The translations under genes and the position numbers were made by a program. 64,000 bases of DNA from a virus (taxonomy: Duplodnaviria > Caudoviricetes): the IMG/VR virus record IMGVR_UViG_3300031994_000062, positions 1 to 64,000 of that record; one strand, written 5' to 3'. Positions 5,213-60,005 of the stretch are shown piece by piece. Within the stretch, counting starts at the first letter, position 1; each line of letters starts with the position of its first letter. The notes under the pieces were generated by a model that saw only the letters and a program-made list of their open reading frames with translations, ran no database searches and was not told where the DNA came from.

Positions 5213-5227
5213 ATATGTCCTCCTTTC

Positions 5228-5713
5228 TTAACCGATAAGACTAATCATTTCAATGTCAGATAATTCTACTTTCGTGTCATCTGGAAGCTTATCGATTATG
5301 TCTTCTACATTAAGTTCTTTGAAATCATATTCTGATTCTTCTGCAAGAACTTCTCTGATTGATTTATTAATTTCTTCTATTTTCTCCTTATATTCATCCA
5401 TAAACTCAGGCTTTACGGTTCTACCTTCTTCAAGTACAGGGTTCCCATCTTCATCAAGAACGGCATTACCATCTGCATCTCTCTGTGGAATCATATCCTT
5501 GTCAGATTTTTCCTCGCCAAAATATTCATCCTGAAGATCCTTAAGCAACCCCTCACGAAATTCCTCAAACTTCTGAACAGAAGGCTCTAAGAGCTTGATA
5601 TTTGACAAAATATTCCATTGTGCCTTGATTGGCATCGTCTTAATTCTTTCATTTCTAAAGTCGTTAAACCATCTGATAATTGCCTGAGCTTCACTAATCT
5701 TAAAATTCTTCAT
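5228..5713 (-). CDS. Hypothetical acidic protein, possible tail fibre chaperone
   Basis: 161 aa with RBS, between fibre genes. Confidence 0.55.
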   Translation of the reverse strand: MKNFKISEAQAIIRWFNDFRNERIKTMPIKAQWNILSNIKLLEPSVQKFEEFREGLLKDLQDEYFGEEKSDKDMIPQRDADGNAVLDEDGNPVLEEGRTVKPEFMDEYKEKIEEINKSIREVLAEESEYDFKELNVEDIIDKLPDDTKVELSDIEMISLIG

Positions 5714-5739
5714 AATTCATTTCTCCTTTTATTCATTGA

Positions 5740-8211
5740 TTAATCACTTATTTCGCAGAAAAACTGCATCCTTCCATTAATAATTGATGGGTCTACATAA
5801 AAACATCTGGTATCTTTGTAGGCCACCGTTGTATCTAATGGAGTACCTTGAGAATCCATTCTATAATATTTATAAGTAAAATTATCTGTTTCTGTTGCAT
5901 TTTGCCATGACCCATCTAAATATTTCTTCAGTACACACGTTTTAAGGACAGGGTCAAGATGATAATAAAAATCTCCAACTGACGGACTTGACGGTGGAGT
6001 AGAAGAGAACATAGTAGATCTAATAGGATCAACTTCAACCCCATTCTGATAAACTCTAGTATAAATTGCGCCATAACCTTGATTATTTTTAAACTCCCTG
6101 ATCGTTGAATATGTATAAGCCGTATACGGATCAGTAATATCATCGACTGCATAATATGCTTCATAATTATGACCATTATATGTGGCTATACATTTAAGCA
6201 ACATCTGGTCAGTAACCATAGACTCTGTTATAGTAATGCTGGTTCCGGTTTGTCCAGTAATTGTTCTATATGATCCATTTACAAATTCAAGCCATTGTAC
6301 CGCAGTTGGCGTTACTGTAGATGATCCAGAAATTAATGATGTTTTGATCACCGTATTTCTTCCAACGGCAACATTTCCACCATCTTCTGAATATAGTTGA
6401 AGGATTACAGAATTCTCTCCATTTTTGGCTTGAATAGATTTTGTCCATGAATATTTATAATCTGAGCTTCTGGAATCTGCACTAAGAGTTATAGTGATAT
6501 CTCCACTAAGAAGAGATGTATTTCCTAAAGTCGCACCAGCTGACACAGTTAAAATCAATAGTCCGCTAGACGAAGATGTACCTCCTACATTAGAAGTTAT
6601 TGTAACTCCATTTGGTAAAGTTCCAACTGTTGCCGTTACTGGTACTCGATTAACTCCCTTATATGCAAAAAACGGAATCGAAAAATCTCTTGTTACATAT
6701 GCAGTACCGTCAGTTCCGCATGGTATAACATCAGAATAATTAGACAATCCCATAGCAAGACCGTCTTCACCATCATTACCATCTTCTCCAGTTAAACCAT
6801 CTCTAGTTATAACTACGCTCTGCGAATCCACCTCGGTCGTTGTTGAGCCAGCTTGATAAAGAACGCATCTAATACTATCAATAGTGTTAGCGGATGGAGT
6901 ATATATCTTCTGAGATTCATTTGAACCACTTGTATATGTTGTAGTGTAAGTATTGCCACCATCTGAACTTTCAGATATTATAAACCTGCCCATATATGCC
7001 GTTTTGGTTGGAGAATTGCCGATTTTAGAATATGCATTAAATTTTACAGAAAGAGGTGTCAAAGTGCCATCCCTTTTTATATTTATAGTATAATAATCTG
7101 GTACAACTTCATAAATAACAGCATCTTCGCCATCTGCTCCAGCTGTAAGTTTCGTAATTGTATATCGCTTTGTTATGTTTGAATATCCTTGTCTCGTACA
7201 AATAAAATCGGCATAACTTGATAACTGGGTGAGATTAGATGGGGTATAAGTATATGTAGAAGGATCATATGATCCAGTAAGTCCCGTACCATTTTGAACA
7301 GTAATTGTCCATTGATTTGTAACATCTGTTCCACCTTCAAAAATACGAACATCTGTTGCTGCCCCGGCCCATGACCTTACAGTACCATCAGACGTACAAG
7401 GAAGATAATGGTTTTCATTTGACAACACAGTACTTATGGTTTCTTGACCTGGTGCACCATCATACACCTTAATTATTTCATGCAAGTCATAAACCGTATT
7501 ATCCGAAGTCTCAAGCTTAATTACTGCTGTTTTACCATTAATCCAAATATTCGCTTCTGATTCATCAACAACAAGATTCATTCCAGTATTTGTTGTATTA
7601 ATTCCACTTGTAGTTGGATAGTTTACGAATGATCCGTCAGCTTTCTTATATTTCCATTTAGTAATAGAAACATTTGTAAGATCAGCCGTCAATGTTATTT
7701 GGTTTGAACCAACTATTGATCTTGAAGAATCATATAAAAATACAGATTCCCCCATAATTGTGGCCATCTTTAAATCAGTGGCGCGGCTGATTAAAGAATA
7801 AGACATCGCTGTCTCCGTAGTAATTGGAATACTTGTTTTTGGATCTGTATAAGTTATTGTACAAATATAAGTTAAAAGACCACTTGTAATAGAAGATAAT
7901 TTATTGGCAGTTACTGTTAGTATTCCATTTGTAACAGTTTCTCCGTCCTGCAAAGCCGTTGCAGTGCCAGATCCTTCTTTTCTTGTGAATGTAATTGTCA
8001 AACCTGTGGCTGTTAACGGCAGATTTCTTCCATTATAAGATATCACTGGAGTGATAGTCAGATTGGAAGTGGCCCAGTTTGGTATATATAAATTTTGATT
8101 TGGGTCGTAGATTACGCTTGTCGGCTGGTTTGATGTACAATATAAATTTATGACACCGACATCGGTTAAATCAACAACCGATACGCTTGAAAAGGCCTGA
8201 ACTTTGGCCAT
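5740..8211 (-). CDS. Baseplate/tail fibre structural protein
   Basis: 823 aa, Thr/Ser-rich beta-type modules separated by short collagen-like linkers (DGAPG, DGEDA, DGLTGEDGNDGEDG). Confidence 0.7.
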   Translation of the reverse strand: MAKVQAFSSVSVVDLTDVGVINLYCTSNQPTSVIYDPNQNLYIPNWATSNLTITPVISYNGRNLPLTATGLTITFTRKEGSGTATALQDGETVTNGILTVTANKLSSITSGLLTYICTITYTDPKTSIPITTETAMSYSLISRATDLKMATIMGESVFLYDSSRSIVGSNQITLTADLTNVSITKWKYKKADGSFVNYPTTSGINTTNTGMNLVVDESEANIWINGKTAVIKLETSDNTVYDLHEIIKVYDGAPGQETISTVLSNENHYLPCTSDGTVRSWAGAATDVRIFEGGTDVTNQWTITVQNGTGLTGSYDPSTYTYTPSNLTQLSSYADFICTRQGYSNITKRYTITKLTAGADGEDAVIYEVVPDYYTINIKRDGTLTPLSVKFNAYSKIGNSPTKTAYMGRFIISESSDGGNTYTTTYTSGSNESQKIYTPSANTIDSIRCVLYQAGSTTTEVDSQSVVITRDGLTGEDGNDGEDGLAMGLSNYSDVIPCGTDGTAYVTRDFSIPFFAYKGVNRVPVTATVGTLPNGVTITSNVGGTSSSSGLLILTVSAGATLGNTSLLSGDITITLSADSRSSDYKYSWTKSIQAKNGENSVILQLYSEDGGNVAVGRNTVIKTSLISGSSTVTPTAVQWLEFVNGSYRTITGQTGTSITITESMVTDQMLLKCIATYNGHNYEAYYAVDDITDPYTAYTYSTIREFKNNQGYGAIYTRVYQNGVEVDPIRSTMFSSTPPSSPSVGDFYYHLDPVLKTCVLKKYLDGSWQNATETDNFTYKYYRMDSQGTPLDTTVAYKDTRCFYVDPSIINGRMQFFCEISD

Positions 8212-14563: not shown

Positions 14564-16190
14564 CGTTGTCTTTACATGGTTCGCTACACCATGCTGAGTA
14601 AAACCCACTCATGTTTTCACATGAGACGAGACTATATCTTATCAAATATTATATGTGTAATTCCTTAGTTAAAATTTTCTCTATATTTTGAGATTCCCAA
14701 TATGGGATCCTGATCAGTTTAATATCATTGTTGTAGCAATAATCGTTTTTAATTTTATCATGCAATTTTGTCATCTCGAATGATTCTTCACCATATACCG
14801 GCTCAAAATGTTGTCTTCCGTCGAATTCAATACATGTATTATAGTCGAAAAGATAAAAATCAAAAGGTAAACATCTTTTATCTTTACAACCATCAAATCT
14901 CTTTTCGTTTTCGTATTCAATATTAAATTTCTCCAAGCAGTTTTCAACTAATCTTTCTCCGCGCGTCTTTTTAGAAGAACAATTGTGACAGCGGATTTGG
15001 CCGCTTTGATAATTTGCTAAACTTGCCAAATATACATTTCCGCATTCTCCGCATTTTATTTTTAAATTTATTGTTTGATTATTTTTGTAATCTTCTGGAT
15101 TCAAAAGAATATTCCCGTTCTCACTTTCAATATATCTAATTAATTGCTCTTTGGATAATTTTAATTTTTCTCCTATTGTTTTTTGAAAACATGAAGGACA
15201 TGTAACTTGATTTGAATTTTTATATTTAGAAAACGACACGGTATATATATTTCCACATTTCCCGCACCTTACATTGAGATTTTTATTATTTACATCTGTA
15301 AAATCATCTGGATTCAAAAGAATATTGCCATTAATAGAATTAATATAATCCTCGACAAATTTCTTAGAATATCTTTTAACTTCTGTGCTCTTTTTAATTC
15401 CACAATCATGACACATCCCGTGACTATTGGTAATATTTGATAAAGAAGAAAGAAATTCTTTTCCGCATGAACCACATATTATTCTTAAGTTTTTCACTTT
15501 CATATTAATATAATCATCAGGATTTAAAAGCTTATTATTATTTTTCGATTCTACTATTTTAATTACCTCTTCTTTACTTAAAGCTTTCTTTCCTTTTAGC
15601 TTTTCGCTATTCGGATGAACACCACCGTTTAATTCTTTTATTTTTTTATGAACACATTTTTTACATGCATATTTTTCTTTGTGATTTTTTGTTTGAGATA
15701 AATACTTGTTGTATGGAAGTATTCTTTTTTCTCCACAATAATCACAGATACATTCGATTTTTACATTTGAATCAGGATTTAAATCATCAATATCGACTTC
15801 AAATTCATCAAATCTTCCAGTGTATTCATACCCTTTATTTTTATAATAAGAAATTATTGAACCAGACCATTTTAATTTGATCTTTTGTGGTTTAACTAAT
15901 ATTGTAATCATCTCCTTATATTTCTATCTTTTTGACAAAAAAATAAGACCACCCGAAGGTAGTCACACACATAATATTTGATATTCACCTTTTCAAACCG
16001 CCAATAGCTTGCGGCCCTACTCCCAAAATGGGATAGTCGTTGAAGTTTCTCCTGTTCGGAGCTTACCTGCTGATTACCCAATTCTCATAATTTTCAAACA
16101 TTCACGCTCAAGTTTATTTCATCATCACGTTGTAGTTTATGAGACTCTAAGGGTGTTCCAGCAATTAAATGAATATGCGCAAATAATTTC
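14564..16190 (-). mobile_element. Group I intron (1627 nt) in the tape measure gene, endonuclease in loop L8
   Basis: Core elements AAUUGCUGGAA, AAUCAGCAG, UCAACGACUA and AAGAUAUAGUCU. P7 GACUA/UAGUC, P3 AUAUUCA/UGAAUAU, P1 exon GCGU with IGS GCGC. P8 arms flank the ORF. 5' exon ends in U, intron ends in G, and the join is in frame. Confidence 0.9.
14649..15911 (-). CDS. Intron-encoded homing endonuclease, zinc-ribbon repeats + Vsr/DUF559-like PD-(D/E)XK domain
   Basis: Repeated CxxCG modules, then LPFDFYL...CIEFDGRQH...DKIKNDYC...LIRIPYW. Confidence 0.85.
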   Translation of the reverse strand: MITILVKPQKIKLKWSGSIISYYKNKGYEYTGRFDEFEVDIDDLNPDSNVKIECICDYCGEKRILPYNKYLSQTKNHKEKYACKKCVHKKIKELNGGVHPNSEKLKGKKALSKEEVIKIVESKNNNKLLNPDDYINMKVKNLRIICGSCGKEFLSSLSNITNSHGMCHDCGIKKSTEVKRYSKKFVEDYINSINGNILLNPDDFTDVNNKNLNVRCGKCGNIYTVSFSKYKNSNQVTCPSCFQKTIGEKLKLSKEQLIRYIESENGNILLNPEDYKNNQTINLKIKCGECGNVYLASLANYQSGQIRCHNCSSKKTRGERLVENCLEKFNIEYENEKRFDGCKDKRCLPFDFYLFDYNTCIEFDGRQHFEPVYGEESFEMTKLHDKIKNDYCYNNDIKLIRIPYWESQNIEKILTKELHI

Positions 16191-19100
16191 ACGCCTTAAA
16201 TCAATATTTTCTTGAAGCAGTTCATTCTCACGTTCAAGTTGATCGTAATACAACTCAAGAATTTCACCACGATAATCAGCAATACGCTTTGCTTCCTCGG
16301 AAATTCCGTCCATATATTCATTCTGAAGCTCTATAGCTTTTTCTTGAGTGATGTTACCATTGTCAAGATCTTCCTGAACTTTGTCTAATGCGATTCTATA
16401 ATTACTGATAATCTTATTTGAGTTTTCAATAAGTTCTGTCAGCATTGCCAAATCTGCATAAGTATCATCAGTAAATCCACCATCTTTACCAACAAGATTA
16501 TCTTTATTGATAAATTCTCGGATAGTTTCAAGTTCAGATGTCGTACGAGTCAATGTTTCCAAGAAATCTCTGAAAGGTTTCCAACGGAGTTCTACAATTT
16601 TATCGGAAAGATCTTCGATAGCGTTAGCAGCACTAAATATGCTTTCACTGGCTTGTTTAGCATCTTCGTTCCACTGATTCCACTCCTCGGATCCGATTTC
16701 AAGATTCGCCATTTGTTCTATAGCTTTTTCATAAACTTCCGTTGATTTCTCTATTGCGGCAAAATTAGCATTCAGCTGTTCTTGAAGGGCTGTTTCGTCA
16801 TATCTGAAAATTGCCTTATCTGCCCTATCGCCAAAGTATTTTCCGCTTATACGTTCAGCGTAGTCATTTCTGGTACTAAGACGATCTATAGTATCCTGAA
16901 TTCTCTTAAGCTGATTCTGCAAATTAGTAAAATCAAGACGTACAAGAGTATTCTGAAACTCTTTGAGATCCTTTTTAGCGTCAAATGTTGCACCTCGAAG
17001 ACTAGTTAACTGAGCCTCCATTTCATACCATTGTTGTGTACCTTTTTTAAGTTCACCAGATTTAATTTGTTCAAGGACTTCTGCTTCGTATTTTGATAAA
17101 TTAGATTCAGCATTAGAAACGGCATTTTTCTTAGCCTGCTCTTCTATTGCAAAAGGAGTAGATTGACTGGTGAACAGCTGTCCTCTGGCTTTACCAAGTT
17201 CAACGTAGGATTCAACTTCTGACGCTCTTGCGGAAAATGTTTCGCCGATTTTATCATACCAATTATTAATATTTTCTAATCTCTTTGCGGCATTTTCATA
17301 AAAAGCATCCAGATAAGCATCTTCTGCAACTAAGAAATTATCGTGAGCGGTAACATTAGCGTCAATTGATGCATTATAAGCCGCAACCGCTTTTTTAGTT
17401 TTTGTGCTCCAAGAATCTTTAATTTCTATCTTTTGACGTTTGTCAATAGCATCTTGATATTTCTTCTTATCTTTTTTGTTTATTTTGGAATTCTTAATTA
17501 CATTCTTAGCATTCTTGCTTGAAGACTTAAGATCGGATTGGGTTGTGTTATATGCAGTTTGGCGTTCTCCCATCTGATTCTTTAAGTTGGTAGTTTCCGA
17601 ATTCAGATCTGCGTTCATTTGTCCTATAGCAGTAGTTTTACCGTCTTTGCTATTACGATATACATATTTGGAATTTCTCTCAGAATTTCTCTTAAGGTCT
17701 TCTAATTCTTTATTTAATTTTTCGACGGCTTTGTCAGCTTTAACATTTGGAATGTCTTTTAATTTAGTATAAAGTTCCTGAAGGTTGTCGGTTAAATCGA
17801 TAACAGCTTTAGATGCTGTTTTAGATTTTTGATACCAAGTATCTATATCTTTGATCAATGACATACGTTTTTCGCCGTAACTAGCAATGGTAGATTTTGT
17901 AAACTGACCCTTTTTGTTTTTCTTTATACGACCTTTTTCAAGATCCTCAACGATTTTATTAACCCATTTATTATTTTTATTGTCAATTTTATCGCCCTTT
18001 TTCGCCTTCTTGTTATATACTTCTACGCCTTTTTTGCCGACAGATTTGGCCTTTTTCTTATATCCAGAAGCAGCAGAACTGTTTGCGTTTAATTCTTTTG
18101 TTAAGCTACTTATGGCTTTATTGTAAAAATTCCTTTGAGTTTCGGATCCTTGATTGACTGCCTTTTCAGCTGCAGTTGTCCACTGAGCAGTTAAGTCTTT
18201 AAGATGTTCAAGTCTAATCTCGACCCAATCAAAAAGACTGGAAACCCATTTTTGAAATGCGTCCCATGCTTTATCTTTTTTAGATCCGTTCTTGTTGCCT
18301 TTCTTACCAGACTTCTTACCGCCAGATTTCTTGGAAGTTTTCTTTCCGCCGCCGGAAGATGTGGAAGAACTACTAGAAGAAGATGTTCTATTTAATTTTC
18401 CGCCATTTTTCCCTAAATAAGCCGTTCCGCCAATGTAAGCATAATAATCTTCATCTTCGTCATCATAAAATTCAAAATCGTCATAGTAATAATCTTCATC
18501 GTCCAATGTGGAACCATGAGCAAATGCAGATCCATGCAGATTAGATTTCCCTCTGGTCGAGGTGGAACCGTTGTTTAATAATTCTTCAGTCTGCTTAGAA
18601 TTAAACACAACGGAATGTGCCGGGATATGAGTAAATTCTGGACCATTTTCGCCTACTAGCCACCATCTATTTCCGTTAACAACCATTTCAGGCGCGACTT
18701 CACCAACTAAAGCGTTCTCATCGGATTTAGTCTGCCATTTTTTGGGATAGTTATTAGTGTCAATAGGAGTGTGTTTTAAAGATTTATCTGGAAGACCTGA
18801 GATCCAAGAAGGAGTTCCGGATGCATGGGCGGTGCCGTGAAGATGTTCTGTTTCAGTGCCACCTTTACCATGATTGCCTCTCTCTGTGGAAACTATTGTT
18901 TTCTTATGCGTTACAAGATTTACAGTCTTATCTTTTAACTCTCTCATTTTAGAAACGATAGAACTAATGGCAGATTTCGCTGTTTCTGCGCCATTTGCGG
19001 CAATATTAAAGTGTTTGTTGGGAATATTTTTATTGATAACAGACTGTATTTTGTTTAACGCATCTTTATTGTCTCCTCTAATTAATGCTTTTTTTTCTTC

Positions 19101-22100
19101 AGGAGAAAGAGTATTCCATGCATTAATAACCCAAGTAGCTTTATCTTTACCGTTTAATTCTGCAAATTGCGGAATAGGAGATAAGGAATTCCACAATCCA
19201 ATAATAGCAGTGGCCTGATCTTCGCCAGTAAGAGTAGCAAATTGTTCATCTGCTTCAAGCTGATTCCATGCATCGATTATCGGCGTAGCATTGTCTTCGC
19301 CAATTAATTCGGCAACAATAGTCTGTGCTTGAGGAATTGAAGTAAATTCATTTAATTCAGCTTGTGCCTTGGACAAATCTACCTGCGGAACTATCACAGG
19401 ATTTGCCAATGGTGCCTGTAAAGTCGACTTTTTCGGCTGTGACTGGGTCTCAGTTTTTTTCGGCGTTGTTTCTGTTTTCGTTTCAGTTTTTGAAGAAGTG
19501 CTACTATCTCTTTCCGAATAAGATCTTTCCTTATTTGCTTCTATTTGCTGCTTTTTGTATTCTTTAATAGCTTTAGTTCCGCCTTTATATTTAGAGGCGA
19601 GTTTTTCGACTGTCGTGCCCTGTTTTTTAGCGGCAGCTTCGAGCTTTTTGTATTGTTGCTCTACATCTTTACCAGCATTAAAGTTTTCAGTAAAAGCTTT
19701 AGCAAGTTTCTTATTATTTTTAGCTTGCTGTTCTGCGGAACCGTTGTTATATTTAGATGTTGTCTTATCATCTTTACTGGTTTTACCGGTAGTCTCATCG
19801 ATAGTCCCCTGAAGCTCATCTTTAACATTTTGCTTAAATTCCGGAAGTTTCTCAGCGAGAATTTGATCCATATTACCTTCAATAAACGTAGACCAATCCA
19901 TACTTTCGCCACTAGCTAACAATTGTTGGTAGGACAATTGCAATTCTTCGATAGCTTGTTTTTCTTGAAGAAGTTCTTCTCGTCTGGCTTCTGTGGTACT
20001 TGCTAATTTTAATTCAGAATTAATGTCATTAATCTTATCAAATGAAGCACCATATCCTCTGTTATTACTTGCCGTAATACCGGTTTGTTTTTCTAACAGA
20101 TCTCGTCCTTCTTCTAGTTTCATTATTTGAGAAGAAGCATTTTCTTTAGACCAGCCATTATTTAAAGCATCTTGTTGAAGCTGATTTAAATCATATAATA
20201 CTTGAGACAAATCATATTCAAACTTAATTTTAACAATAGCTTCATCATCTAATTCGCCAAGGTCTTCTTGATATTTTTCGTACTCCTGATCAAATCCTTG
20301 AAGTAAAAGACCTAATCTATCCTTTGCTTCACCGGGCTTCATAGATTCATAAAGCTGTTGAACGTTTTCAAGATTTTGACGATATTCGTCTAATTTCTGA
20401 CCGGACCACTCAATTCCTGTAAACTCAAAACCGTAATCTTTAAGTCTATTAAGTATGGTCTCAGTAGCCTGAACACTAAGCCCCATTTTTTCTGCGGCTT
20501 CAGCTGTGGTTTCGAAGGTATTTTTGGTTTCTCCGGTCTCTTTATTAACCCATTTCATAACTCCCTTTTCGACAGCGTCGTCACGGAAATTGATCATGCT
20601 ATCCATCGGATTTTCGGAATCAAAATATCTCTTGATTTTCTTTTGGGCTTTCTTCCAAGCTTCAATATAGGCATCAGAGTTGAAACCTTCGGTTACTTTA
20701 ATCTGTTTCGGACTCATAAACTGAGCAAGAGTTTGGAAATCGTCAGTGCCTACAAGTCCCTTTTTGTAAAGATCTTTACCGTTCTTTAGCCATCCGGCCA
20801 TAGATTCCCAATTGGCCCCAGCATTTTCGGATTCTTGGGCAGCTTTGACACCTTCGAAAGATCCATCTACTTCAAACACTTCTTTAATCTTAGCCTTGGT
20901 TTCATCTGCATTTACTTTGAGATCGTCGAAATATGAATTTAAAGATTCAACAGCAGATATAGTACCACCAGCACCATCGGCAATATCATAAAGGTTTATA
21001 TCTTCAACAGTATAACCAATTTCTGCAAGGGCTTCAGACGCAGATTTTCCATCGTTGACGGCATCGGTAAGATATTGTTTAAGCTCTTGGCGAGACTTAT
21101 TTGTGGCTTCGTCTGTCGAAGTAAAGGCAGATTCAATATTCTTACGCATTAAATCAGTAGGATCCTTTGTATCGGAAAGCGCGTTGCTAGTTTGTTGAAT
21201 GGCAGATTCAATCTGATGATATGCGTCGGCAGCTTTATCGTCAGATAAATCAAGGGTGTCTTTATATTTAGCCATTTCTGTACTTCCTTTGGTCAACGCA
21301 TCGGTAATATCATCCACCCGTTTTTTGGCATTGTCGTAACGCTTTTGAACTTCAGGTCGAATTTTTCCTTTCTTTTCATCTTCGTCATAAGCCTTTTGTG
21401 CTTCATCTAATTCTTCCTGAGCTTCTTTTAAGGCTTTTAAATTGTTTAATTGACCTTCTACTAATTTACTCTTACCGTAGACCTTTTTAGTGGGATCATA
21501 AACACCTGCTGGAAGTCCTGATTTGGTGTAGTCAACAGTTCCTTTGTCGGAATTTAAAGCTTTCAATGCAGAATCGCTGGCACGTTTTTTCTCGGAATCC
21601 ACAAGTTCTTGTTGGATATTTCTCATGTCCTCAAGTTCACGCTTTTGTGCTTCAAGATTTGCGAGTTCTGCTTTGTCTGTAAATGTTAATTTATCTTTAG
21701 AATTAATTTCATCAATTCTAGAATTGATATCTTGGATTTTCTTATCTGTTTTGTCGAGTTCTGTAAGATCCTTGCTGTATTTTTCATTGTCTTCGTCAAA
21801 CTTTTCAGATTTACGATCATAATCCTTTTCATACCATTTTGCTACACTTATAGCCGCTAATAATGCAGCAATTCCGCCAATTGCAAATTTCCACTTAAAC
21901 AAGAAACTTCCTATTTTTTTTACAGTTTCTAATAAACGACTGAAACCAGTATTTGCTGCTGCGGTTCCTGCCGCGACTCCTCCGGCGGCGGCTTCAATAC
22001 CTTCCATCTGTAAAGCTGCAGCTCCAGTAGTTCCGGCAAATTCCTCCAAATCATCTGCGGCGTCAGCCAATTTTACAACTCCAGAATTAGCATTGCTACC

Positions 22101-25100
22101 AGTAATAGATCCTAAAAGTACTCCATTGTTTGCGGCAGTAAAAGCGCTTTGCTTGGCATTTAATTCAGAAGTGAAACTTGCCTCGGCTGCAGCTCCTGCG
22201 GCGTCGGCATATCCGGCAGCTAATCTTTCTGCATTTGTAGCTGCCACTCCCGTGGCGGTCGCCACTTCTTCAGCTTCTAAAGCAGCAGCTGCTGTAGAAC
22301 CAGCTAACAATTCTGTTTCAGAACTTAGCGCTTCGGCTGCTGTTGCCGCCGTAGCTTCGGCTCCAGATAATACTTCAGCTTCTCCGGCCGCTGTGCCTGT
22401 CGCTGCCGCAGTCTCGGTTTGTGCCCCGGCCGCTAATGTTGCTTCTGATGCTACCGTTCCTTCAGTACCAGCCAGCATTGCCGCCTCTGCCGTTGTTCCG
22501 GCCATAGCTTCTTGAACCGCTTGTCCAGACATAGCTGTTTCATTCATAGCTGTTCCACTTAAAGTTGCAGCTGTAGCCATTCTTTCCGTACTTGCTGCTG
22601 CTTCTGCCGTTCGTGCAGATAATTCTTTCCAACCAGTTTCATTAATTAGATTTTCAACATTTTTCTGATTGAGGTTATGATCAAGAGCAAAAGTATTTAC
22701 TTCATCTAAAGTATCGAATTTATTATTCTGTAGTTTACTTCTTAAAGTCTGTATTGCGAAATCGTTTGCTCCTGCATTAGCTATATACGGAATAGCGCTT
22801 GTAAGACCTACTAATCCACCAGCGCCAGCTAAAGTAGGAAATAATCCGATAGTATCAATGATATTGTTTAATAGCTCAAGAAACTCTGTTGCTCCTTCTA
22901 TTAATCCTTTAAACATATCAGACGTAAACACACTAGTTTGTAATTCCGATATACGTGTTTGCAATTGCGATATTTTACCATCAATAGAATCTAAATACTT
23001 TTCGTTTTCTTCCATAGCCGATCCTTCGGCGTTTTGAACCTGTTCGTATGCAGATCTAAGTATTTCAGGATTCTGAAGAATACTACCGGCAATATTAGCC
23101 CTTGTTTTTCCGGCAATTAATTCAAGCAATCCGTTGGCTTTATTTGTACCGAACTTTTTATCACTTTCTATAATTTCATCATAAATATCGGCAATTTCTT
23201 GCAATACCTGATATGTTGATTTATACGTACCATCGTCAGACAACATACTTACGCCTTTATAATCATTTGACCCAACGGCAGTAAACTGTCTAAGTTGCTC
23301 GTCAATTTTACTCTTTGTTTGTACGACAAAATCCGTAGTGTCTTCTCCGATATCTTCGAGTTCTTTTTTAGCCGCTTCTGTACCTGCCATTCTTAATGAA
23401 ATAGTTCTTAATCCAGCACCGGTTTTAGATGCATTTTGGGTAATAGCATTGCCAGCTGTAATTAACGCAATCGATTCATTGATATCATTTCCGGCTGTCG
23501 ATAATGCAGCAGCAGAGTCTTTTAAGCCAGTTGCCAATTGATCGGTTGAGATACTGAAGTTATTACCAATAAGATTTAATTTATCGACAATATCAATCTT
23601 CTCTAAATCATCATAAGCGGCACTCATAGATATAAGGCTTTCTGTGGCCTCATCTATTGAAGAAAATTCAGATACATTCATCAATATATTCGCAGACTCT
23701 GCAGATTTTTGTGCTTCATCAAAGCTTTCACCAAGTCTCAAGAAATCAGCTGTACTCTGTTGAAGCTGTAAAGCTGTAGTACCAATATTAGATGCTAAAT
23801 CAAAACTAACTTCTTGGAAATTACGAAGACTTTGTACAGACTCATCCGATACTTTTCTCATCTCTGTAAGAGCTGTGTCGAATTGTCTTACTTCATTAGC
23901 CGTATCTTTTATTACACCTATGATTCTATAAAATGATGCGAACGACGCTAAATATGCACCTAAGCTTCCCATACGCTGTTTCCAGGTATCAAAGAAACTC
24001 ATCCCAGTTTTACCCGCAGCCGTTAAATTACCACGCAAAACATTTAATTGATTCGATAATTCATTAACATCTTTTACAGAATTTTTAGTATTTAAATCAC
24101 CGATTTGAGCGCCTAGATTATTAAATTGATCTTTGAACGCACCTGATCTTGCTGCTTTAGAATTAAATTCTTTAATAGTAGCGAATCTTGTTTGTAAAGC
24201 AGATATTGATTTCTCACTTGCAGGAGTGAACTCTCCAGATTTAACTCTATTTTCAAGTTCTGTATACATATTAAGCAATTCTTGAATATCTGCTTTTTGC
24301 TTTTCATCATTAGGATCAAATGTGGTATTATTAAGATTATTAATAGCTTCGCGAATCTTTTCAACTTCAGCATAATAGGTATCAAACATACCTTTTTTGG
24401 CATTAAGATTATTAAGCTGATCAACTTGTGTTTTCATAAAATCTTGATATGCCAATTGAGGCATAGATTCAATTTGTGCTTTAAATTGTCTGTCGGCCGC
24501 AGTAGCTTGATCACCGGCTTCTACAATTCTTTGATACGCCTGTACAATATTATCAAGAGCGCTAGTTTGAACCGGAGTCATTTCTTTACCAGATAACTGA
24601 GCAGCGTAACCAGCTCTCGCATTCTTTAAATCCTCGTTCTGTTGCTTGGTTAACTGTACATCTTTAGTAACAGGATTAAGAGTTTGAGCATATTCTGCAA
24701 AATTTCCGCGTTCAACAGATTGAATAGCCGCATCAAGATCCTTGACTTTTACAGTAGTCTGTGTAACCTTTCCATCGAGTTCATTAAAAAATGATAATAC
24801 AGCCGTATTACCATCAAATTTAACACCTTCAAAGGTGCCTAGTCCTTCTATAATTTTGTTTTTAGAGAAATAATCACGAATAGAACTTTGGTTAAATAAC
24901 TTTTCGTATTCAGCTTGCTGATCGGCTCTTTGTTTCTCCGCGTCGCGTGCCGCCTTCGCCTGTTCCTGTTCTTGCTGTCTGAGTAATTTCGCATCGGCTT
25001 GTTTTTGCGCATTCTCAGAAATATTAGACGCTTTTTGCATATCAGATAATTCTGATTTTGTTAATTTAATCAACTCTAATAATTTCTGAAGATCTGCAAT

Positions 25101-28100
25101 TTGTTTTTCGTCACTCCAATCAATTGTCATTCCTTGTAATTGATCAACATAACCTTTGAGATCTTTAAGTTTATCTGCAAATCCCGCGATTTTTGAAGAA
25201 TCTACGTCCGTAAACTTCTGGAGATCAGTACGCTCTTTTCCCACAGTGCTTCTAAGAGCAGCATTAGAAACTCGTTCAACAGAATTTACCAATTCTCTGT
25301 CGCCAGTGTTCTCTGGATTTAAATACGACCTGGTTTGTTTTGCAGTTCCGTAAGCTTCGCGAATTTGTTTCATTACGTCTGTCTGAACACCAGATACTTC
25401 CTGTCCTTTAAGTATCGCATCAAGGCCAGCTTTGTAATCAGCCATAGTTTCTTTAAAGTTTGCTTTTGATAACTCAGAAGCCGTTTTATTAATAGCTGCT
25501 TCAGACTTTAATTGCTGTTGTTCTTGATCTTTACGTTGCTGTTCTTTAAGTTTGTCTTCTTCCTTAATTCTTTGCCCAGCTCTTTGAATCTGATATTTTT
25601 GCATTTCCTGATCTTCTTTAATCAAACGTTGTCTTTCAGCTTCTTTCGCAGCGGCTTCTTCTCTAACGATTCTTTGAGCTTCCTTTGCTTCTGCATCGTT
25701 TTGACGTTCTTTATCTTTGATAGCTTGTTCTTGTAAGCGTTTATTTTCCTTTTGCTGTCTTTCTTGTGCTTTTTGCTGTCTTTCTTGTGCTTTTTCGCGT
25801 TCGCGCTCTTGTCTTTCAGCTTCTTTGACTGCATCTTTATCGATTTGAGTATATGAATTTTTAAAATCATCTTTATTAAATGTACCTTTTTTTAATTTAT
25901 CTGATACTTCAACAAGATCTTCAAACCTTACTATAGTCTCAGCCAAACCTTCATTGAAGGCTACAACAGCGTCGCCATCTTCGCCGAAGGAAATTAATTT
26001 TTTAAAATCTCCAAGACCTACATCGTTAAATAAATCGTTGTATTGACTAAGATCGTAATTCTCAAGAAATACATCTTTTGTCATTCCACGATATTTATTA
26101 CCACGGCCTTCACCTTCTCCGCGACCTTTTTTATTCGGGTCCTCAGGCTTACCACCGCCAGCGGGTTTATTCTCAGTTTTTTCTGATTCATCATTTACAC
26201 CTTTGACGGTTAGTTCGACTTCTTTCCCGGTTAGGGATGACTGAATAGAAGAGATAAAAGCATCCGCGTCGGTTTCAAGAGGTTTAAAACCTATTTGAAC
26301 TTTCTGTTCTCCGATTTCACTCTGAATCTTTGAAACAAAATCTGCTCCAGCACCTTCAATAGGTTCAACGTTTAAATGAATTGATTGACCTTCCGCTTCG
26401 GATTGTACCTGGGAAATTAGAGAAGAAGATGATCCTTCGGCTGGTTTAAAGGTTACAGGAATTTCAAAATTTCCCTTACCACTTACAGAATTAGCATTAT
26501 CGCTTACAGACTTAATACTATTCTGAGCACGATTATTAAGGATATCGTTAATATCGACTTCTTCAATAGTTCCTTTTTTGTAAGCTTTATAGCCAGATAT
26601 ATTATAATTATCATCATAATTAGGAAGAATTTCTATATTCCTCATGATGCCCGACTTTAATATATTAAGCGTTTTTAAGTCACTGTCTCTAGGCACCCAA
26701 TGCGAATCTATAAAATCTTTAGTATCTTTAAATCCAAGATTCAATCCGGATTTTTTCATAGCCCTATCCAATGTTTCTTTATCGCCGCTTAACAATAATG
26801 CTTGTTGCATATACATTTGAGCTTCTTGCGTTGAAAATAAATCTGGATAAGATCCGGAAGAGATCTGTTCGTTATGATATGCTCTTATTTTTTCAATACA
26901 TTCATCAAGAGTTACGTTAAATCTTTGAGCATTACTTAAATCTTTAGCTGTAAAAATTTGATCTTGTTGTTTAAGACCATTTAATATTTCAGTAATATTT
27001 TTTCCTCTTGCAGATCCAAGTTTCAATTTTTGAATAGAGTCCCAGGCATTATCTATTGCGAATTGATCTTTTAACTCTGACTCTGCTACTCCAAAAGATT
27101 TATAAATTCCTTTTAATCTCTGATAAGTTATTGCCAGAGATTCCTTTTGAGATTTATCAATATCTTTCGGATTCCAATATGGAACTTCTGTTGCTCCATA
27201 CGTTTTTTTTATTAAATCATTAATACTTAAATTATATGGTTCAATCTTTTTTTTCAAAGTATCGGAAATACCAGGTTTGATATTTTCAGCAATAACATCT
27301 TGAATTTCATTTGAAATTTTCGAAGGTGTAGCACCGGAAGATCCACTACCCATCTTGATATTATTAGGATCAACCTCGACGCCAATCTTAACATTCTGAC
27401 CTTCTAAAGCATTCTGAATCTTACCAACAAATCCGCCAACATCATCTGCTTTAGGCTCAATAGGAATATCAAGTGGTTTATCAACATGTATGGCTTCAGA
27501 AATTTTACTTTGAAGTTCCGTAACTTTACCTTGGGCGTCAGAAAGCTTGCTCACTGCTTCTGTTAATGATTCGACGAATTTATTAATTTCTTCAGTGTTG
27601 AAACCGCCACTTCCACCAGCGCCTTCTTTGTCGGCTTCTGCTGCTAATTTTGCAGCTTCTGCTTCAGCTTTTTTTGCAGCCATACGATCTTCGTTGACTT
27701 TAGCAGTATCATAATCTCTTTGTAATCTTTGTCTTTGTTGACGCGCCGCCTCAAGTTTGCCTATTGGAGTATTCTCGTCTCCAAGAGATTTCATCGTTTG
27801 AAGATTACCGCTTATAACATCAACATTTTTCATTGTTGTTAATTTTCTTACAATATCATAATACTGTTGCAAATTAGATACTAATTTGGTTATCTGTTCA
27901 ACGTTGCCTTTTGCGTTTTTACTGTCATATTTAATCTCAATTGGCTTATTGAATTGAATGTCGCTCAATTTTCCGCCAAGCTTGGTATATGTATCCAAAT
28001 TCTTAAAGAACTTGTCATCAAACATTAAATCTCGATTGGTAGCTGCGGCTTCGGCGGCTTCTGCGGCCTTTTTGCTTGTAAGATATTTATAAGATTTTTC

Positions 28101-28748
28101 ATAATCTTTAGCTACCTTACCAAGACCACCTTTTTTACTATCTAAGAGTTGCGCATCTAAATTGGTTATTTCCTTCATAATATCTTCTGAAGGAGCCAAT
28201 TTGATCCCAGATATATCAATTAAAGTATCTCGAATTTGAGTTAAAGTAGTTTTTAATTCTTCGAAAGATTGCACATCAATCTTGGTGTCGACCATTGCTG
28301 CCATAGCTTTAGTAACCGCATCAACATTATCGTTAATGTTCCTTAATTCGTCTCCGGTTACTCTTAACCCCATAATATCTTTGCCTTCATCCGTTTTCCC
28401 TATTTGTTGCGTAACTTGAAGTAAATTATTTCTTAAAAATTGAACCCTATCTGCCGCCTTTTGCAGACTTGTTTGCATATCATCGAGTTCTTGAACCTGA
28501 CCATTTATAACTCCTTTGCCAGATCCAAATACTTTCTTAAAGTCGAGTCCTTTAAGATTTTTATTCATACCAATCAAATAATTATCTAATTCATTGAACA
28601 ACCCTTGTATTTGCTTTTTATCTATGCCAATATCAATTGTATACTGTTTGCCTTCGATAGCTTCCTTAGTTTCTCTTTCAGCTTCCTTAGTATCTGCATG
28701 GACTTTGGCAGTGACGTCCATTTCAATACTTTTTTTTAAATCTGCCAT
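16191..28748 (-). CDS. Tape measure protein, exon 1 (4186 aa)
   Basis: TP901-type core (FDTALTEMRKV...IVDKLNLIGNNFSIS...GAGLRTISLRMAG), long coiled-coils, position before Dit. The last 17 codons of the listed ORF are intron sequence. Confidence 0.92.
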
Positions 28749-56182: not shown

Positions 56183-56596
56183 TCAACTATTTTCAATCTT
56201 ATTAATCAGACGCATGAAATCCTGCTTTACACTCTCATCTGCATCTGCCATAAGATCTCTTAGATCATTTGCCATTTCCATTGAGTATCCGCGATCGTAT
56301 CCTTTACGACTATATCTTCCAGACCTGCTATAGCGTCCGTTTCTAGCGTAATTATTCATTCCATAATTCATTCCGCTATTACGATACATAGGATCATCAT
56401 AACGAGAACTATATCCGCCACCATTACGAGAACTATATTCAGGCATCTCTTTCTTTTCAATAATTTTTTCTATATTTTTCATTGCGTGAGCGAGCATGTC
56501 AACAATCTCAAGATCGCCAGCATCCCAAGTAGGTTTATGGCCGATGTCCTCAAGTTCCTGACAAAGTCGTTCTTCTAAGTTATAAATTCCGTCCAT
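56183..56596 (-). CDS. Cassette gene 6: helical protein with R/Y/S/G-rich low-complexity tail
   Basis: 137 aa, YSSRNGGGYSSRY...YARNGRYSRSGRYSRKGYDRGYS. Confidence 0.75.
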   Translation of the reverse strand: MDGIYNLEERLCQELEDIGHKPTWDAGDLEIVDMLAHAMKNIEKIIEKKEMPEYSSRNGGGYSSRYDDPMYRNSGMNYGMNNYARNGRYSRSGRYSRKGYDRGYSMEMANDLRDLMADADESVKQDFMRLINKIENS

Positions 56597-56606
56597 AAGT
56601 ACCTCC

Positions 56607-57029
56607 TTATCCTATAACAATGAATGCATTACGCATGTTTATTGGTTGCGAACTCGTATTTCTTACAGTAAGAGTTTCACAGCATCCGCGCCATACATCG
56701 GCAACGACAGCTTTGGAAACTGCATTGTAAGAATTTAATGCGGTAGGAGTAGATGTCATAGTTGAAGCCGGTATTGTGGCGCCGCCAATGGCTATGGCAA
56801 CCGTAATTTCTTCAACGGTTCCGCCAGTCGGTACGCTAATATCAGCTCCGAAATCAACTAAGTAATTTACTGTTTGTTTGCAAGGACATCCACAACGTCC
56901 AGCTAAATTAAAACTATCAGACCTTGCGCGAACTAAACCGTTATTACAGGGTACTTCAACTGTAGTGAATACAGCACTTTCGCCGGGATTAATAGTTTGT
57001 TCTGAAGCATTAGAGTATGCACATAACAT
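56607..57029 (-). CDS. Cassette gene 5: Cys-rich beta-sandwich protein (BclA-C/C1q-like, inferred)
   Basis: Alternating beta pattern, RCGCPC and GCCETL motifs. Confidence 0.65.
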   Translation of the reverse strand: MLCAYSNASEQTINPGESAVFTTVEVPCNNGLVRARSDSFNLAGRCGCPCKQTVNYLVDFGADISVPTGGTVEEITVAIAIGGATIPASTMTSTPTALNSYNAVSKAVVADVWRGCCETLTVRNTSSQPINMRNAFIVIG

Positions 57030-57046
57030 TTCTAACACCCCCTAAT

Positions 57047-57862
57047 TTACGCATTACATCCGCAAGCGTTTGTATAGCCACAACCACAACTATTATTTAC
57101 AAAAGGATTAGGAACTGTATAAGAGGGCACTGGATAGGGAGCAATACGATTTACAACATACTGTGTCTGAGCAGCATTGTCAGCAACCAGTTGAGCAGTC
57201 TGCTGTGCCTGAGAATTAGCAAGATTCATCATATTAAGCTGAGTTCTAAGGTTTGCAATTTCCTCATTTTTCTGATCAAGCTTATCCTGGCACATCTGAT
57301 CTTTAATGCCCTGGAACCCAGCATTCATAGCATTAAGAATTCCATTAGTATTAGCATTGTTCTGTGCAGTTAAATTCATCAAACCTTCAGAAACTGCCTG
57401 TCTATCTGCACAAGCCTCTCTTGCAACGTCAGCACCAAGGTTAGCCAATCCAAGACGATTTTCGCAGCAACAATCTGAGAACTGACTCTGCATGTTGTTG
57501 AATCCTTGAAGTATTGCCATCTGATTTGCAAAATTCTGATTCATGTCGGCGATTTGACGAGCGTTATTAGAGGCTTCTGCCTGAGCAAATCCATTAGCTA
57601 CAGCAGTCTGGATTGAATCAATACCAGAATTGATCATCTGGTCTCGGAACCCACCATTAATCTGATCAGACTGATTCATCCACGGATATAAAGTATCAAC
57701 ACTTCCATCACCGTTTCCGCCCCAGCCATTTCTTCCAAATCCAAAGAGGAAAAGTACAAGGAGCCAAAAGGCACCATCATTTCCACCAAAACCGCCGAAA
57801 CCACCGTTTCCGGTTACTGCTGCAACGTCTGCAGCGGAAAGCCCATTATTAGTATTAATCAT
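57047..57862 (-). CDS. Cassette gene 4: Gly-rich hydrophobic N-terminus + Gln/Asn coiled-coil with CCC motif
   Basis: GFGGFGGNDGAFWLLVLFLFGFGRNGWGG, DCCCENR, C-terminal CGCGYTNACGC. Confidence 0.8.
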   Translation of the reverse strand: MINTNNGLSAADVAAVTGNGGFGGFGGNDGAFWLLVLFLFGFGRNGWGGNGDGSVDTLYPWMNQSDQINGGFRDQMINSGIDSIQTAVANGFAQAEASNNARQIADMNQNFANQMAILQGFNNMQSQFSDCCCENRLGLANLGADVAREACADRQAVSEGLMNLTAQNNANTNGILNAMNAGFQGIKDQMCQDKLDQKNEEIANLRTQLNMMNLANSQAQQTAQLVADNAAQTQYVVNRIAPYPVPSYTVPNPFVNNSCGCGYTNACGCNA

Positions 57863-58159
57863 AAGGCATTCTCCTTTCTAAATATTTTTAAAAAATTAAT
57901 AAGTTGTAGTAATTCGTGCACAAATTACTTTGTATATAATCATCTATAAAGATGCTTATATTTCCATATAACGAAATAAGCGCACCATAATCACACTCCT
58001 AGAAAAACACCGATTTACGGCGGTTCACTCTTGTTTGCGTAGATTTGATGCGCTTGTTAAATAAGTTATTATTCAACTGTTTAATCAGTAATAATATTAA
58101 GTTTTTATAGCGTTAGAATGTCTCTTTATTTATTTCATACATCTATTCCAAAAGAATCA

Positions 58160-58396
58160 TTAACCACCGAACCCACTTCCTCTAATTATGTTAGCCCACT
58201 GACTGATTTGATTAAACTGTTGCTGAGTCATCTGGCCAGAATCAAGTAATCTCTGAACCATTAACTGCGCAGGAACCTGACCGTTATATTGCTGTTTAAA
58301 AGTGTTAAACTGATTTACAAAATTCTGATATCCACCAAACATTTGAAACGGATTATTCATCTGATTTCGCACCTGTCCGAACGGTTGATTAATCAT
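58160..58396 (-). CDS. Cassette gene 3: small Gln/Asn-rich protein
   Basis: NNPFQMF...VQRLLDSGQMTQQQFNQ. Confidence 0.75.
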   Translation of the reverse strand: MINQPFGQVRNQMNNPFQMFGGYQNFVNQFNTFKQQYNGQVPAQLMVQRLLDSGQMTQQQFNQISQWANIIRGSGFGG

Positions 58397-58745
58397 TAGC
58401 GGCACCTCCTAATTCTTTTAATAATTTATTTACACTATCTGCCAAATTTGCGACATTACTTGACAGATTGTTAAATTCATCTCTTGATACATTTTCATTG
58501 ACTTCCTGAGTTATTTCTTCCTCGAAGTTAAATACTCGAAGTCGCTGTGGAACTCCATTGACGTTAGATTTAATCCAGAATTTTCCTGCATCGAAATCCA
58601 TTAGTAAGACAGCGTTTCCTGATGCTACTGGGTATGCCTGGGCACCAGATTCACCATTCACAAAGACAGTCATCATAGAGTTCGAAGGATCATTGTTGTA
58701 TATATAACCCGTATTTTGTGATGAGTAATTGTTTCCGAAGTTCAT
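58389..58745 (-). CDS. Cassette gene 2: hypothetical protein
   Basis: 118 aa, VNGESGAQAYPVASG...LMD...FWIKS. Confidence 0.75.
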   Translation of the reverse strand: MNFGNNYSSQNTGYIYNNDPSNSMMTVFVNGESGAQAYPVASGNAVLLMDFDAGKFWIKSNVNGVPQRLRVFNFEEEITQEVNENVSRDEFNNLSSNVANLADSVNKLLKELGGAAND

Positions 58746-58751
58746 AATTTA

Positions 58752-59132
58752 TTACTCCTCCTTATACCAATAAAATTGCGGAATTTCCCGTGATGAGTCC
58801 CATGAATCATAAAGTATTCCATTTTTTACTGTGGCAACATGGCCATCGCAAAACAACACATAGATTCCCCTTGGATGGTCTATGCAAAAATCCCAAAGTG
58901 TATAACAATCTGGGCACCTATTTGGAATAACTTGTCTCTGGAACCCATACTTTCGCAATACACCAGCTATTACAGAATTAGAATGCGGCATCAGTCCCAT
59001 ATTAAAGCCCATTTCAGTCAAAATATCGTATGTCTGATCCCATGACGTATCTAATGCGACTGTCAAGGCTCGTATAGAGCAGTCTTCTGTATGATGTCCT
59101 ACAGGATTGGGATTATAGTATTTGTAAGCCAT
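58752..59132 (-). CDS. Cassette gene 1: putative papain-fold Cys peptidase
   Basis: EDCSIRAL (Cys), DGHVATV (His), LYDSWDS (Asp). The triad is inferred. Confidence 0.6.
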   Translation of the reverse strand: MAYKYYNPNPVGHHTEDCSIRALTVALDTSWDQTYDILTEMGFNMGLMPHSNSVIAGVLRKYGFQRQVIPNRCPDCYTLWDFCIDHPRGIYVLFCDGHVATVKNGILYDSWDSSREIPQFYWYKEE

Positions 59133-59174
59133 GTAAAATCACTCCAATCAAAAAAGGGGCTATAAAAGCCCCCA

Positions 59175-59390: not shown

Positions 59391-60005
59391 TTATAAAATG
59401 TCGTAGATGGTACATCCATCTTCGCCAATAATTTTATCTACAATTCCCATCTTAGCTGCTTCGGGACTGAAAAACAGGAATTCGTCTTTTCGTCTCTCCT
59501 CGTATTCATCTTCAGTAATATTAGTTCTCTCTAATACAAGCTGCCTATCAATCTCATCAAGATCATCCATAAAGTCCATCCAGTTTCTCATACGACTTGC
59601 GGAATTAGAAAGACTTCGGCTGCTTTCATGCATTAGAAACGAAGAATGCTTCCAAGCGTATCTCTCATGACAAGCAATATATACAGAAAATGCAGCGGAT
59701 GCGACAATAGAAAACGCTACGCCAATAACTTTGGTTTGGCTTGATCTAATTACATCAACTAGATTATTCATTGTTATACATGATCCGCCTTCACTATCAA
59801 TATAAATTCTAATAGGATGACGTTTTTCAACCGGAATATCCTTATCCTCGTCGTTCCATTTAATAATATTCAAAATAACCGACTCTAAAAGCCAGTCAGA
59901 AATCTCATCATTAATTAACAATATTCTATTGTCGTAGAAATCACGAATTACCTCATCCCTAATTTCATCGTTTCCCATATCTGTTAGCGTTGATAAAAAA
60001 TCCAT
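59391..60005 (-). CDS. clpP: ClpP-family serine protease subunit
   Basis: IYIDSEGG, VASAA (Ser), FLMHE (His), EAAKMGIVDKI. Confidence 0.88.
   Translation of the reverse strand: MDFLSTLTDMGNDEIRDEVIRDFYDNRILLINDEISDWLLESVILNIIKWNDEDKDIPVEKRHPIRIYIDSEGGSCITMNNLVDVIRSSQTKVIGVAFSIVASAAFSVYIACHERYAWKHSSFLMHESSRSLSNSASRMRNWMDFMDDLDEIDRQLVLERTNITEDEYEERRKDEFLFFSPEAAKMGIVDKIIGEDGCTIYDIL

Follow-up and report, generated by a model that had tools for sequence, protein, structure and literature searches.

A co-conserved six-gene cassette with predicted papain-fold, cysteine-studded helical and TNF/C1q-fold proteins in viruses of gut and rumen microbes

Introduction

In the exosporium of the Bacillus cereus group, long trimeric fibres are anchored by a terminal peptide that is bound by ExsF/BxpB, a TNF-like trimer standing alone; N-terminal processing is part of this system, and in related fibres with C1q heads CC motifs mediate the coupling (PMC12357932). 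A stand-alone jelly-roll protein (g5), beside which a long cysteine-motif protein (g4) and a putative protease (g1) are encoded, is found in a six-gene cassette, g1 to g6, at positions 56183-59132 on the minus strand of the tailed-phage record IMGVR_UViG_3300031994_000062. The first 64 kb of this 85-kb IMG/VR record, here called the window, were analysed; its completeness is estimated by CheckV at about half. As in the system of ExsFA/BxpB with BclA or F-Anchor, the predicted jelly-roll stands alone, with a length of about 140 amino acids (aa) and a template-modelling score (TM) of 0.68-0.74 in the structural comparison. Unlike in that system, the stalk candidate g4 is predicted to be helical and is rich in Q and N rather than collagen-like, no family match is seen at the sequence level, and the setting is that of phages, some of them with hosts that do not sporulate.

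Trimeric fibres with TNF-like heads are also a design of viruses, as in the adenovirus fibre and reovirus sigma1, and g5 has the predicted head fold in common with such viral fibres, among them phage collagen-like tail fibres, from which the cassette differs in that head and stalk are separate polypeptides and that g4 carries a hydrophobic run and invariant cysteine clusters. The model of g1 shows the same fold as the minimal domains of the papain-like clan CA, such as the C39 domains of ComA, PCAT1 and LahT, Josephin, ZUFSP, staphopain and AvrPphB, with a cysteine at the start of a helix followed by a histidine and an aspartate, all of them invariant, but g1 is only 126 aa long, has an additional, near-invariant CPxC motif and is without a Pfam match. 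In lambda Rz/Rz1 and the T4 class III holin T, as in g4, a hydrophobic segment close to the N-terminus precedes a large helical domain with cysteines, and T4 gene t follows the tail-fibre genes, a position to which that of g4 in the window can be likened; in g4, however, the run is shorter than a normal transmembrane helix, and small holin-like genes co-occur. With class I fusion proteins (HA2, gp41, spike S2), g4 shares a Gly/aromatic hydrophobic peptide, a helical body and cysteines, and a protease is encoded nearby.

Results

Six open reading frames (ORFs) are called exactly where the initial annotation had placed six co-oriented genes, all on the minus strand, as are all genes listed for the window: g1 (58752-59132, 126 aa), g2 (58389-58745, 118 aa), g3 (58160-58405, 81 aa), g4 (57047-57862, 271 aa), g5 (56607-57038, 143 aa) and g6 (56183-56596, 137 aa). 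Loci were fetched around relatives of g4, profiles were built for all six proteins and the set was reduced to 90 distinct loci. The exact order 1-2-3-4-5-6 is found in 50 of them, and most of the others are cut by contig ends or follow the pattern 456...123. Each of the six families occurs in 63-89 of the 90 loci (g2 in 68, g6 in 74), the next commonest neighbour family in 21. The six genes are a real, co-conserved cassette, far beyond chance. A lack of co-conservation had been named at the outset as an observation that would speak against the cassette; the fixed order in more than half of the loci shows the opposite.

The cassette is composed of two three-gene units, g1-g3 and g4-g6, in which the genes are closely spaced, with gaps of 6 nucleotides (nt) between g1 and g2, 8 nt between g4 and g5 and 10 nt between g5 and g6 and a short overlap of g2 with g3. 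Between the units lies an AT-rich spacer of 297 nt (57863-58159, minus strand), and among the relatives the units are kilobases apart in two loci (L022 and L031) and swapped in another (L032). Such separable and swapped triads fit the terminator-like sites that a pattern scan locates before g1 and inside the spacer, both on the minus strand. The former, a GC hairpin with a T-run just upstream of g1 (59155-59173), marks the start of the cassette as a unit of its own; the latter is a hairpin at 58008-58022. The RNA of the spacer has a folding z-score of -4.1, with none of 200 shuffled sequences equally stable, and gives no Rfam match; in the closest relative (L006) the gap between g3 and g4 is only 43 nt and the spacer is not conserved. 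No match was obtained in a blastn search of the cassette region against phage records.

Variable flanks surround the cassette in the relatives and include small single-helix holin-like proteins, endolysins, and HNH and terminase genes. In 14 loci the gene just upstream of g1 codes for a 73-aa sigma-region-4-like protein, and in 16 the gene that directly follows g6 codes for a 108-aa protein. The g1-g6 cassette has a single cultured carrier, phage Ceridwen, which infects Butyrivibrio fibrisolvens; here g1-g5 stand in the same order directly after endolysin and holin-like genes, and g6 is found one gene further on.

That the cassette is uncharacterised, as initially proposed, agrees with the databases. 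Five of the six proteins match PHROG families of unknown function (g1, phrog_3754, E 3e-27; g2, phrog_21718; g3, phrog_22984; g4, phrog_16490, E 2e-29; g5, phrog_20016), and none of the six has a Pfam or NCBIfam match above threshold. Nothing on function emerged from literature searches for the PHROG numbers, the 'spike' label in crAss phages and the cultured carriers, and no paper on these protein families was found. Sequence and profile searches of the PDB with g1, g2, g4 and g5 gave chance-level matches only.

The core protein of the cassette is g4, which has more than 7,500 relatives at 90% clustering. At 50% identity, at least 2,856 clusters belong to the family according to an exhaustive profile search, 1,312 of them with an E-value of 1e-10 or better, and the best 150 clusters are all 200-360 aa long. 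A conserved acidic peptide opens the protein and is followed by a Gly/Asn-rich tract, a hydrophobic run, which includes the Kyte-Doolittle maximum and is the candidate anchor segment (residues 31-44; 57731-57772, minus strand), a second tract rich in Gly, Asn and Trp, about 200 aa of Q/N/A-rich helix, a Pro-rich motif and, following the latter, a C-terminal cysteine cluster (C259/C261/C267/C269; 57056-57088, minus strand). Q and N together make up 23% of the protein, and its nine cysteines are the CCC motif at residues 131-133 (57464-57472, minus strand), C151, C191 and four within the last 13 residues. Among 86 sequences, Cys191 is present in all, CCC in 84 and Trp33 in 78, and at least two cysteines are found in 77 of the 79 tails listed.

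In 201 homologues the hydrophobic run extends over 9-12 residues. In g4 it lies between linkers rich in Gly, Asn, Phe and Trp, is flanked by neither Lys nor Arg, and follows an N-tail with a net charge of -3. The 14 residues that precede the run form, in the same 201 sequences, a Gly/Asn/Phe tract that varies and keeps only a loose G-D-G, which argues against a conserved cleavage signal in g4. There is neither a signal peptide nor a C-terminal membrane anchor in g4, the C-terminus being polar and Cys-rich. Fourier analysis gives no dominant 3.5-residue period, and residues 191-229, approximately, are weakly zipper-like, with a match to c-Jun at E 0.36 in a profile search. Of the layout originally described for g4, the hydrophobic Gly/aromatic segment, the CCC motif and the Cys-rich end are thus seen, whereas the heptad coiled-coils are weak. 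In hhalign comparisons the run aligns positionally with the transmembrane segment of the T4 holin T and nothing beyond the run does; with no homology to T outside this segment, g4 is probably not a T4-type holin. In an Atlas search the feature-based matches of g4 were only hypothetical clusters, all or mostly viral, and the structure-based ones only low-scoring, generic long-helix proteins.

The CCC codons of g4 are also the site at which mobile elements insert. A group I intron (RF00028 of Rfam, 70-73 bits in L004 and L030) splits the g4 homologue in L004, L029 and L030 and also in contig C171 of G256. In L004 it covers positions 6395-6757 (363 nt) with the splice point TGC T^GC TGT inside the CCC codons, and its removal would, as predicted from the sequence, restore ...QQCCCENR... 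in the protein. Another locus, L024, bears an insert of about 1.3 kb (4824-6138) at the same CCC site. Within it lies a 326-aa ORF whose N-terminus is GIY-YIG-like and which also has NUMOD1 and DNA-binding domains of the I-TevI type; no Rfam intron is found in the insert at the gathering threshold, and the insert is probably an intron or a free-standing homing endonuclease. As homing elements target conserved sites, these insertions underline the conservation of the CCC site. The g4 gene of the window is uninterrupted and without an intron.

The initial description of g5 as a Cys-rich beta-sandwich is borne out and narrowed by its model (predicted local distance difference test, pLDDT, 93), according to which it is a compact, stand-alone jelly-roll of the TNF/C1q fold with seven cysteines, nearest to exosporium proteins. 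The best solved match in Foldseek is the C-terminal domain of F-BclA (9h38, E 2e-7, TM 0.73), and others are ExsFA (7r1m), BxpB (8d02), BclA (1wck) and the ExsF-peptide complex (9h3d), as well as EDA, C1QL and C1q-like domains and some phage receptor-binding heads; E-values of 2e-7 to 1e-6 and TM of 0.65-0.77 apply to 9h38, 7r1m, 1wck, 8d02, EDA and C1QL. In BFVD, the best matches are stand-alone proteins of 135-142 aa from human-gut phages (TM 0.84), followed by the heads of collagen-like fibres of phages and giant viruses. The fold match alone does not demonstrate common descent with TNF/C1q proteins. Neither g5 nor any of 23 members of its family gave a Pfam match, g5 has no NCBIfam match, and its PDB sequence search was empty. 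Mean column identity of the family is 47%; Cys31 is conserved in 79 and Cys119-Cys120 in 72 of 81 homologues, and the position of Cys6 is occupied by Ala in 60 of them.

Only two longer or fused forms of g5 were found. P0121, a metagenomic protein of 283 aa, is a rare fusion of the g4 core, without the anchor, with the C-terminal two-thirds of g5 and represents a probable deletion fusion of the two. P0122, likewise a metagenomic protein and 1,142 aa long, shows weak alpha/beta-hydrolase and metallopeptidase-like matches and has its g5-like domain at the end.

The candidate Cys-His-Asp peptidase of the initial annotation, g1, is predicted to be a minimal papain-fold hydrolase with an intact triad. 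In its AlphaFold model (pLDDT 94) Cys18 begins a helix (18-27); an alignment of 22 sequences shows no variation at Asp17, Cys18, Arg21, His98 and Asp109, and the triad Cys18-His98-Asp109 is present in all of 73 homologues, of which 63-66 also keep the motif C73-P-x-C76. Almost all of the top 25 structural neighbours in an exhaustive structural scan are papain-fold cysteine peptidases or deubiquitinases (Z 5-6.9 over 100-120 residues, with 6-7 for Josephin, PCAT1/ComA C39, staphopain and AvrPphB), and Foldseek and the scan together point to Josephin-2, the C39 domains of PCAT1 and ComA, a C39-like protein of B. anthracis, staphopains, AvrPphB, UfSP and ZUFSP. With Z below 8 no single family is singled out, and no narrower assignment of g1 is made. 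A short glutaredoxin-like match over the CPxC motif, obtained in a PDB profile search, is not significant (E 0.058) and is a lead only.

Homologues of g1 without the other five genes occur in early regions of Bacillus Tsamsa-like phages and of Geobacillus phage GBK2 and in Lak megaphages. In the Tsamsa-like Bacillus phage Izhevsk (L034:4974-5369) the lone homologue adjoins genes for a Ser/Thr kinase and an Ocr-like anti-restriction protein, and in GBK2 (L035:4986-5375) it lies in the early region in the absence of g2-g6. A bacteriocin export system of the double-glycine, C39-ABC type was considered and rejected: a conserved GG leader is lacking nearby, and no ABC exporter is among the families common to the 90 loci.

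Two small Q/N-rich proteins had been described in the cassette, and g2 and g3 indeed contain 20% and 33% Q+N, respectively. In the alignment g2 has an N-terminus rich in Q, N, P and Y, a small conserved beta-rich core and a C-terminal helix, and an Atlas search with it returned only viral hypothetical clusters; the consensus of 65 g3 sequences contains a motif of the type VQ.LLNSG..SQ.Q.NQ. In g6, the composition rich in R, Y, S and G is as first described, but it characterizes a low-complexity middle segment, about residues 51-105, between two helical ends and not a tail. Out of 20 g6 members, four are matched by phrog_28802 and none by Pfam above threshold.

Homologues of g4 extend to crAss-like phages, Bacteroides phage C3_41T2LP, Clostridium phage CPD1, a Paludibacteraceae metagenome-assembled genome and two viruses assigned to Methanomassiliicoccales. 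In the depositors' annotation the crAss-like homologues are a 'spike protein/glycoprotein' or an 'outer capsid protein/viral fiber'. The hosts of cultured carriers are Butyrivibrio fibrisolvens and Clostridium perfringens, and other carriers infect Bacteroides. Ceridwen is the only Butyrivibrio phage matched in the g4 search, none of the 33 phage records matched by a crAss-type g4 query is named crAss001, and 9 of 399 sampled genomes of the class Clostridia contain g4. This sporadic occurrence within related phage groups points to an accessory gene, and we propose that the cassette is a self-contained accessory unit, passed horizontally between tailed viruses whose hosts live in gut and rumen. 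In one of the Methanomassiliicoccales viruses, vir215 (L036:1052-4186), a gene of the tail-protein family phrog_5302 stands directly before a reverse transcriptase, with g4 0.7 kb later.

In the direction of transcription, the window begins with early and replication genes, an HU gene, the GOLLD RNA and PhoH, continues with a ClpP-like protease gene, the terminator-like hairpin and the six cassette genes, then two tail-fibre genes (530 aa and 431 aa, the latter phrog_5302, 'tail protein'), and proceeds to homing-type endonucleases, the terminase large subunit, the portal and the remaining structural block. By this order the cassette opens the late region. The ClpP-like gene (59391-60005, minus strand; PF00574, E 7e-18; 'head maturation protease' in PHROG) is located directly upstream of the cassette and distant from the portal and capsid genes. 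Selfish nuclease genes are abundant in this phage (49493-50461, 38486-39553, 36119-37147, 14649-15911 and 50926-52368); the set in the structural block consists of three phrog_4645 endonuclease paralogues, an HNH homing-endonuclease-like gene and an endonuclease VII-like gene. The tail region contains a single ORF of 4,203 aa (16137-28748, minus strand).

Discussion

The reading that we favour, with a probability of roughly 40%, is that the cassette encodes a late-made, hydrophobically anchored stalk-plus-head complex with a processing enzyme of its own. Late in infection, the unit g4-g5-g6 would build this complex in the infected cell, with g4 providing a short hydrophobic anchor and a long, Cys-studded, Q/N-rich helical stalk, g5 docking as a TNF/C1q-fold trimer on the terminal peptide of g4, by analogy with ExsF/BxpB, and g6 acting as a low-complexity helper or scaffold. 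The unit g1-g3 would process and mature or regulate the complex through the g1 hydrolase together with the Q/N-rich g2 and g3. As none of the six proteins carries an export signal, assembly should be cytoplasmic, and the hydrophobic run of g4 points to the inner face of the host membrane, where the complex may act on the envelope at the end of infection, in lysis control or in the exclusion of other phages. A late, envelope-directed role is also suggested by the position of the cassette beside late, tail-fibre and lysis genes. The order kept in 50 of 90 loci amid variable flanks, the separability of the two units, the predicted exosporium-like fold of g5, the conserved run and cysteines of g4, the invariant triad of g1, the rare g4-g5 fusion P0121 and the accessory distribution all speak for the proposed complex. 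The docking of g5 on g4, the location at the membrane, the timing and the role of the cassette are in each case what we infer.

Several observations weigh against this proposal. With a length of 9-12 residues and a Kyte-Doolittle mean over 19 residues of 1.33, below the usual 1.6, membrane insertion of the Leu/Phe-rich run of g4 is plausible, but not secure. Small holin-like genes beside endolysins are present in the same loci, such that lysis does not obviously need g4. No clean covariation is found between the loss of the CC of g5 and the loss of the C-terminal cysteine cluster of g4 in 79 pairs, and g5 is not detected in L005 and L009, nor beside the g4 genes of crAss-like phages, Bacteroides phages and archaeal viruses; neighbours of crAss-like g4, when compared with the g5 and g1 profiles by hhalign, gave no significant match. 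Finally, g1 may have an independent target, as it stands alone in the early regions of Tsamsa-like phages and GBK2.

Less probable, but the main alternative, is an accessory fibre or decoration borne by the virion, with g4 trimers attached through their N-terminal part, g5 as the distal TNF-like knob and g1-g3 and g6 as assembly helpers. Such a fibre would help the phage to adsorb, or to adhere in the gut. Viral fibres classically consist of a trimeric stalk with a TNF/C1q head, such heads are among the BFVD and PDB matches of g5, and the cassette adjoins tail-fibre genes in the window, in L004 and in vir215. The six proteins are without export signals, like virion parts, and homing introns, as found at the CCC site, usually reside in conserved, important phage genes. 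It is difficult to reconcile with this design that the proteins are conserved in crAss-like, sipho-like and approximately 170-kb phages with different particles, for which a common attachment site is not easily envisaged, and that g5, with 47% mean column identity, is too conserved for a host-specific receptor binder across phyla. The g4 gene of C3_41T2LP, moreover, is situated in the replication block, and soluble fibres do not usually contain so hydrophobic an Ile/Leu/Phe run.

The occurrence of g1 alone in early regions of Tsamsa-like phages, in GBK2 and in Lak phages, mentioned above, is also what would be expected if two independent modules merely travelled together, an unlikely alternative in which g1-g3 would be a host-takeover or counter-defence unit, with g1 as a hydrolase of the Gly-Gly-specific type cutting a host or defence protein, and g4-g6 a separate unit. 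In some loci the two units stand apart, are exchanged in order or are missing; each has a terminator-like site of its own, and the nearest folds of g1 are deubiquitinases of the Josephin and ZUFSP types and C39 peptidases. This is countered by the 50 of 90 loci in which all six genes are kept in fixed order with very short gaps, by the Q/N-rich composition that g2 and g3 share with g4, and by the generic nature of the g1 fold matches, with Z below 8.

More doubtful still is a new machine of gut viruses that infect Firmicutes, Bacteroidota and methanogenic archaea, in which a stalk-and-head complex, assembled in the cytoplasm and bridged by cysteines or metal ions, would have its short, Gly-flanked hydrophobic tip freed by g1 to insert into or remodel the cytoplasmic membrane, proposed as target since it is the one envelope layer common to all these hosts. 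In a variant of this idea, free thiols would tether released particles to the cysteine-rich mucus of the gut. If true, phages would have in it a new way to bring about lysis, exclusion or release.

The membrane as the one feature common to the hosts of g4-bearing viruses can also be invoked for a fusion apparatus of the class I fusogen or spanin type, in which cleavage by g1 would expose the g4 peptide on a trimeric coiled coil with g5 linked by disulfides. The Gly/aromatic hydrophobic segment near the N-terminus, the helical Q/N-rich body, the conserved cysteines and the co-encoded protease, whose fold neighbours include Gly-Gly-specific peptidases, are in line with such an apparatus, and the initial annotation had seen a class I fusogen-like layout in g4. 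We nevertheless regard it as improbable. In g4 the hydrophobic run lies inside the protein (residues 31-44), neither a signal peptide nor a C-terminal anchor is present, the tract before the run shows no conserved cleavage site, no 3.5-residue period dominates, and searches with g4 match no fusion protein. Furthermore, tailed phages have no envelope to fuse. The identification of g4 as a class I fusogen is therefore not supported, for want of these features, of clearly paired heptads and of detectable homology. A spanin of the Rz/Rz1 type was likewise rejected: comparison of the g4 profile by hhalign shows no similarity to lambda Rz, and no lipoprotein partner is present, inspection of the other five proteins by eye having identified neither a signal peptide nor a lipobox and Cys6 of g5 not being conserved. 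Moreover, a spanin needs an outer membrane to fuse to, which is not expected in Firmicutes such as Butyrivibrio and Clostridium, both among the hosts.

Remodelling of the spore coat or exosporium, for which the phage would supply an ExsF/BclA-like g5 and a Cys-rich g4 to the spore surface of the host, fits the fold of g5, whose nearest solved structures are exosporium proteins, and compositions rich in Cys or in Y, S, R and G resemble those of coat proteins, but such spore-surface modification, part of the original proposal, is very improbable in view of the host range: g4 relatives reside in crAss-like and Bacteroides phages and in Methanomassiliicoccales viruses, neither Bacteroides nor archaea are known to sporulate, nor is Butyrivibrio fibrisolvens, host of the one cultured carrier of the whole cassette, and no spore-coat family matches any of the six proteins.

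Among the gene sets of gut and rumen phages that lack an explanation, the cassette is one of the commoner, and its hosts span phyla and even domains. Its fixed architecture, two confidently predicted folds, invariant residues and cultured carriers such as Ceridwen and C3_41T2LP make it directly testable. Once known, its role would annotate thousands of viral genomes and could reveal a new envelope-directed or particle-decorating mechanism specific to the viruses of the anaerobic gut.

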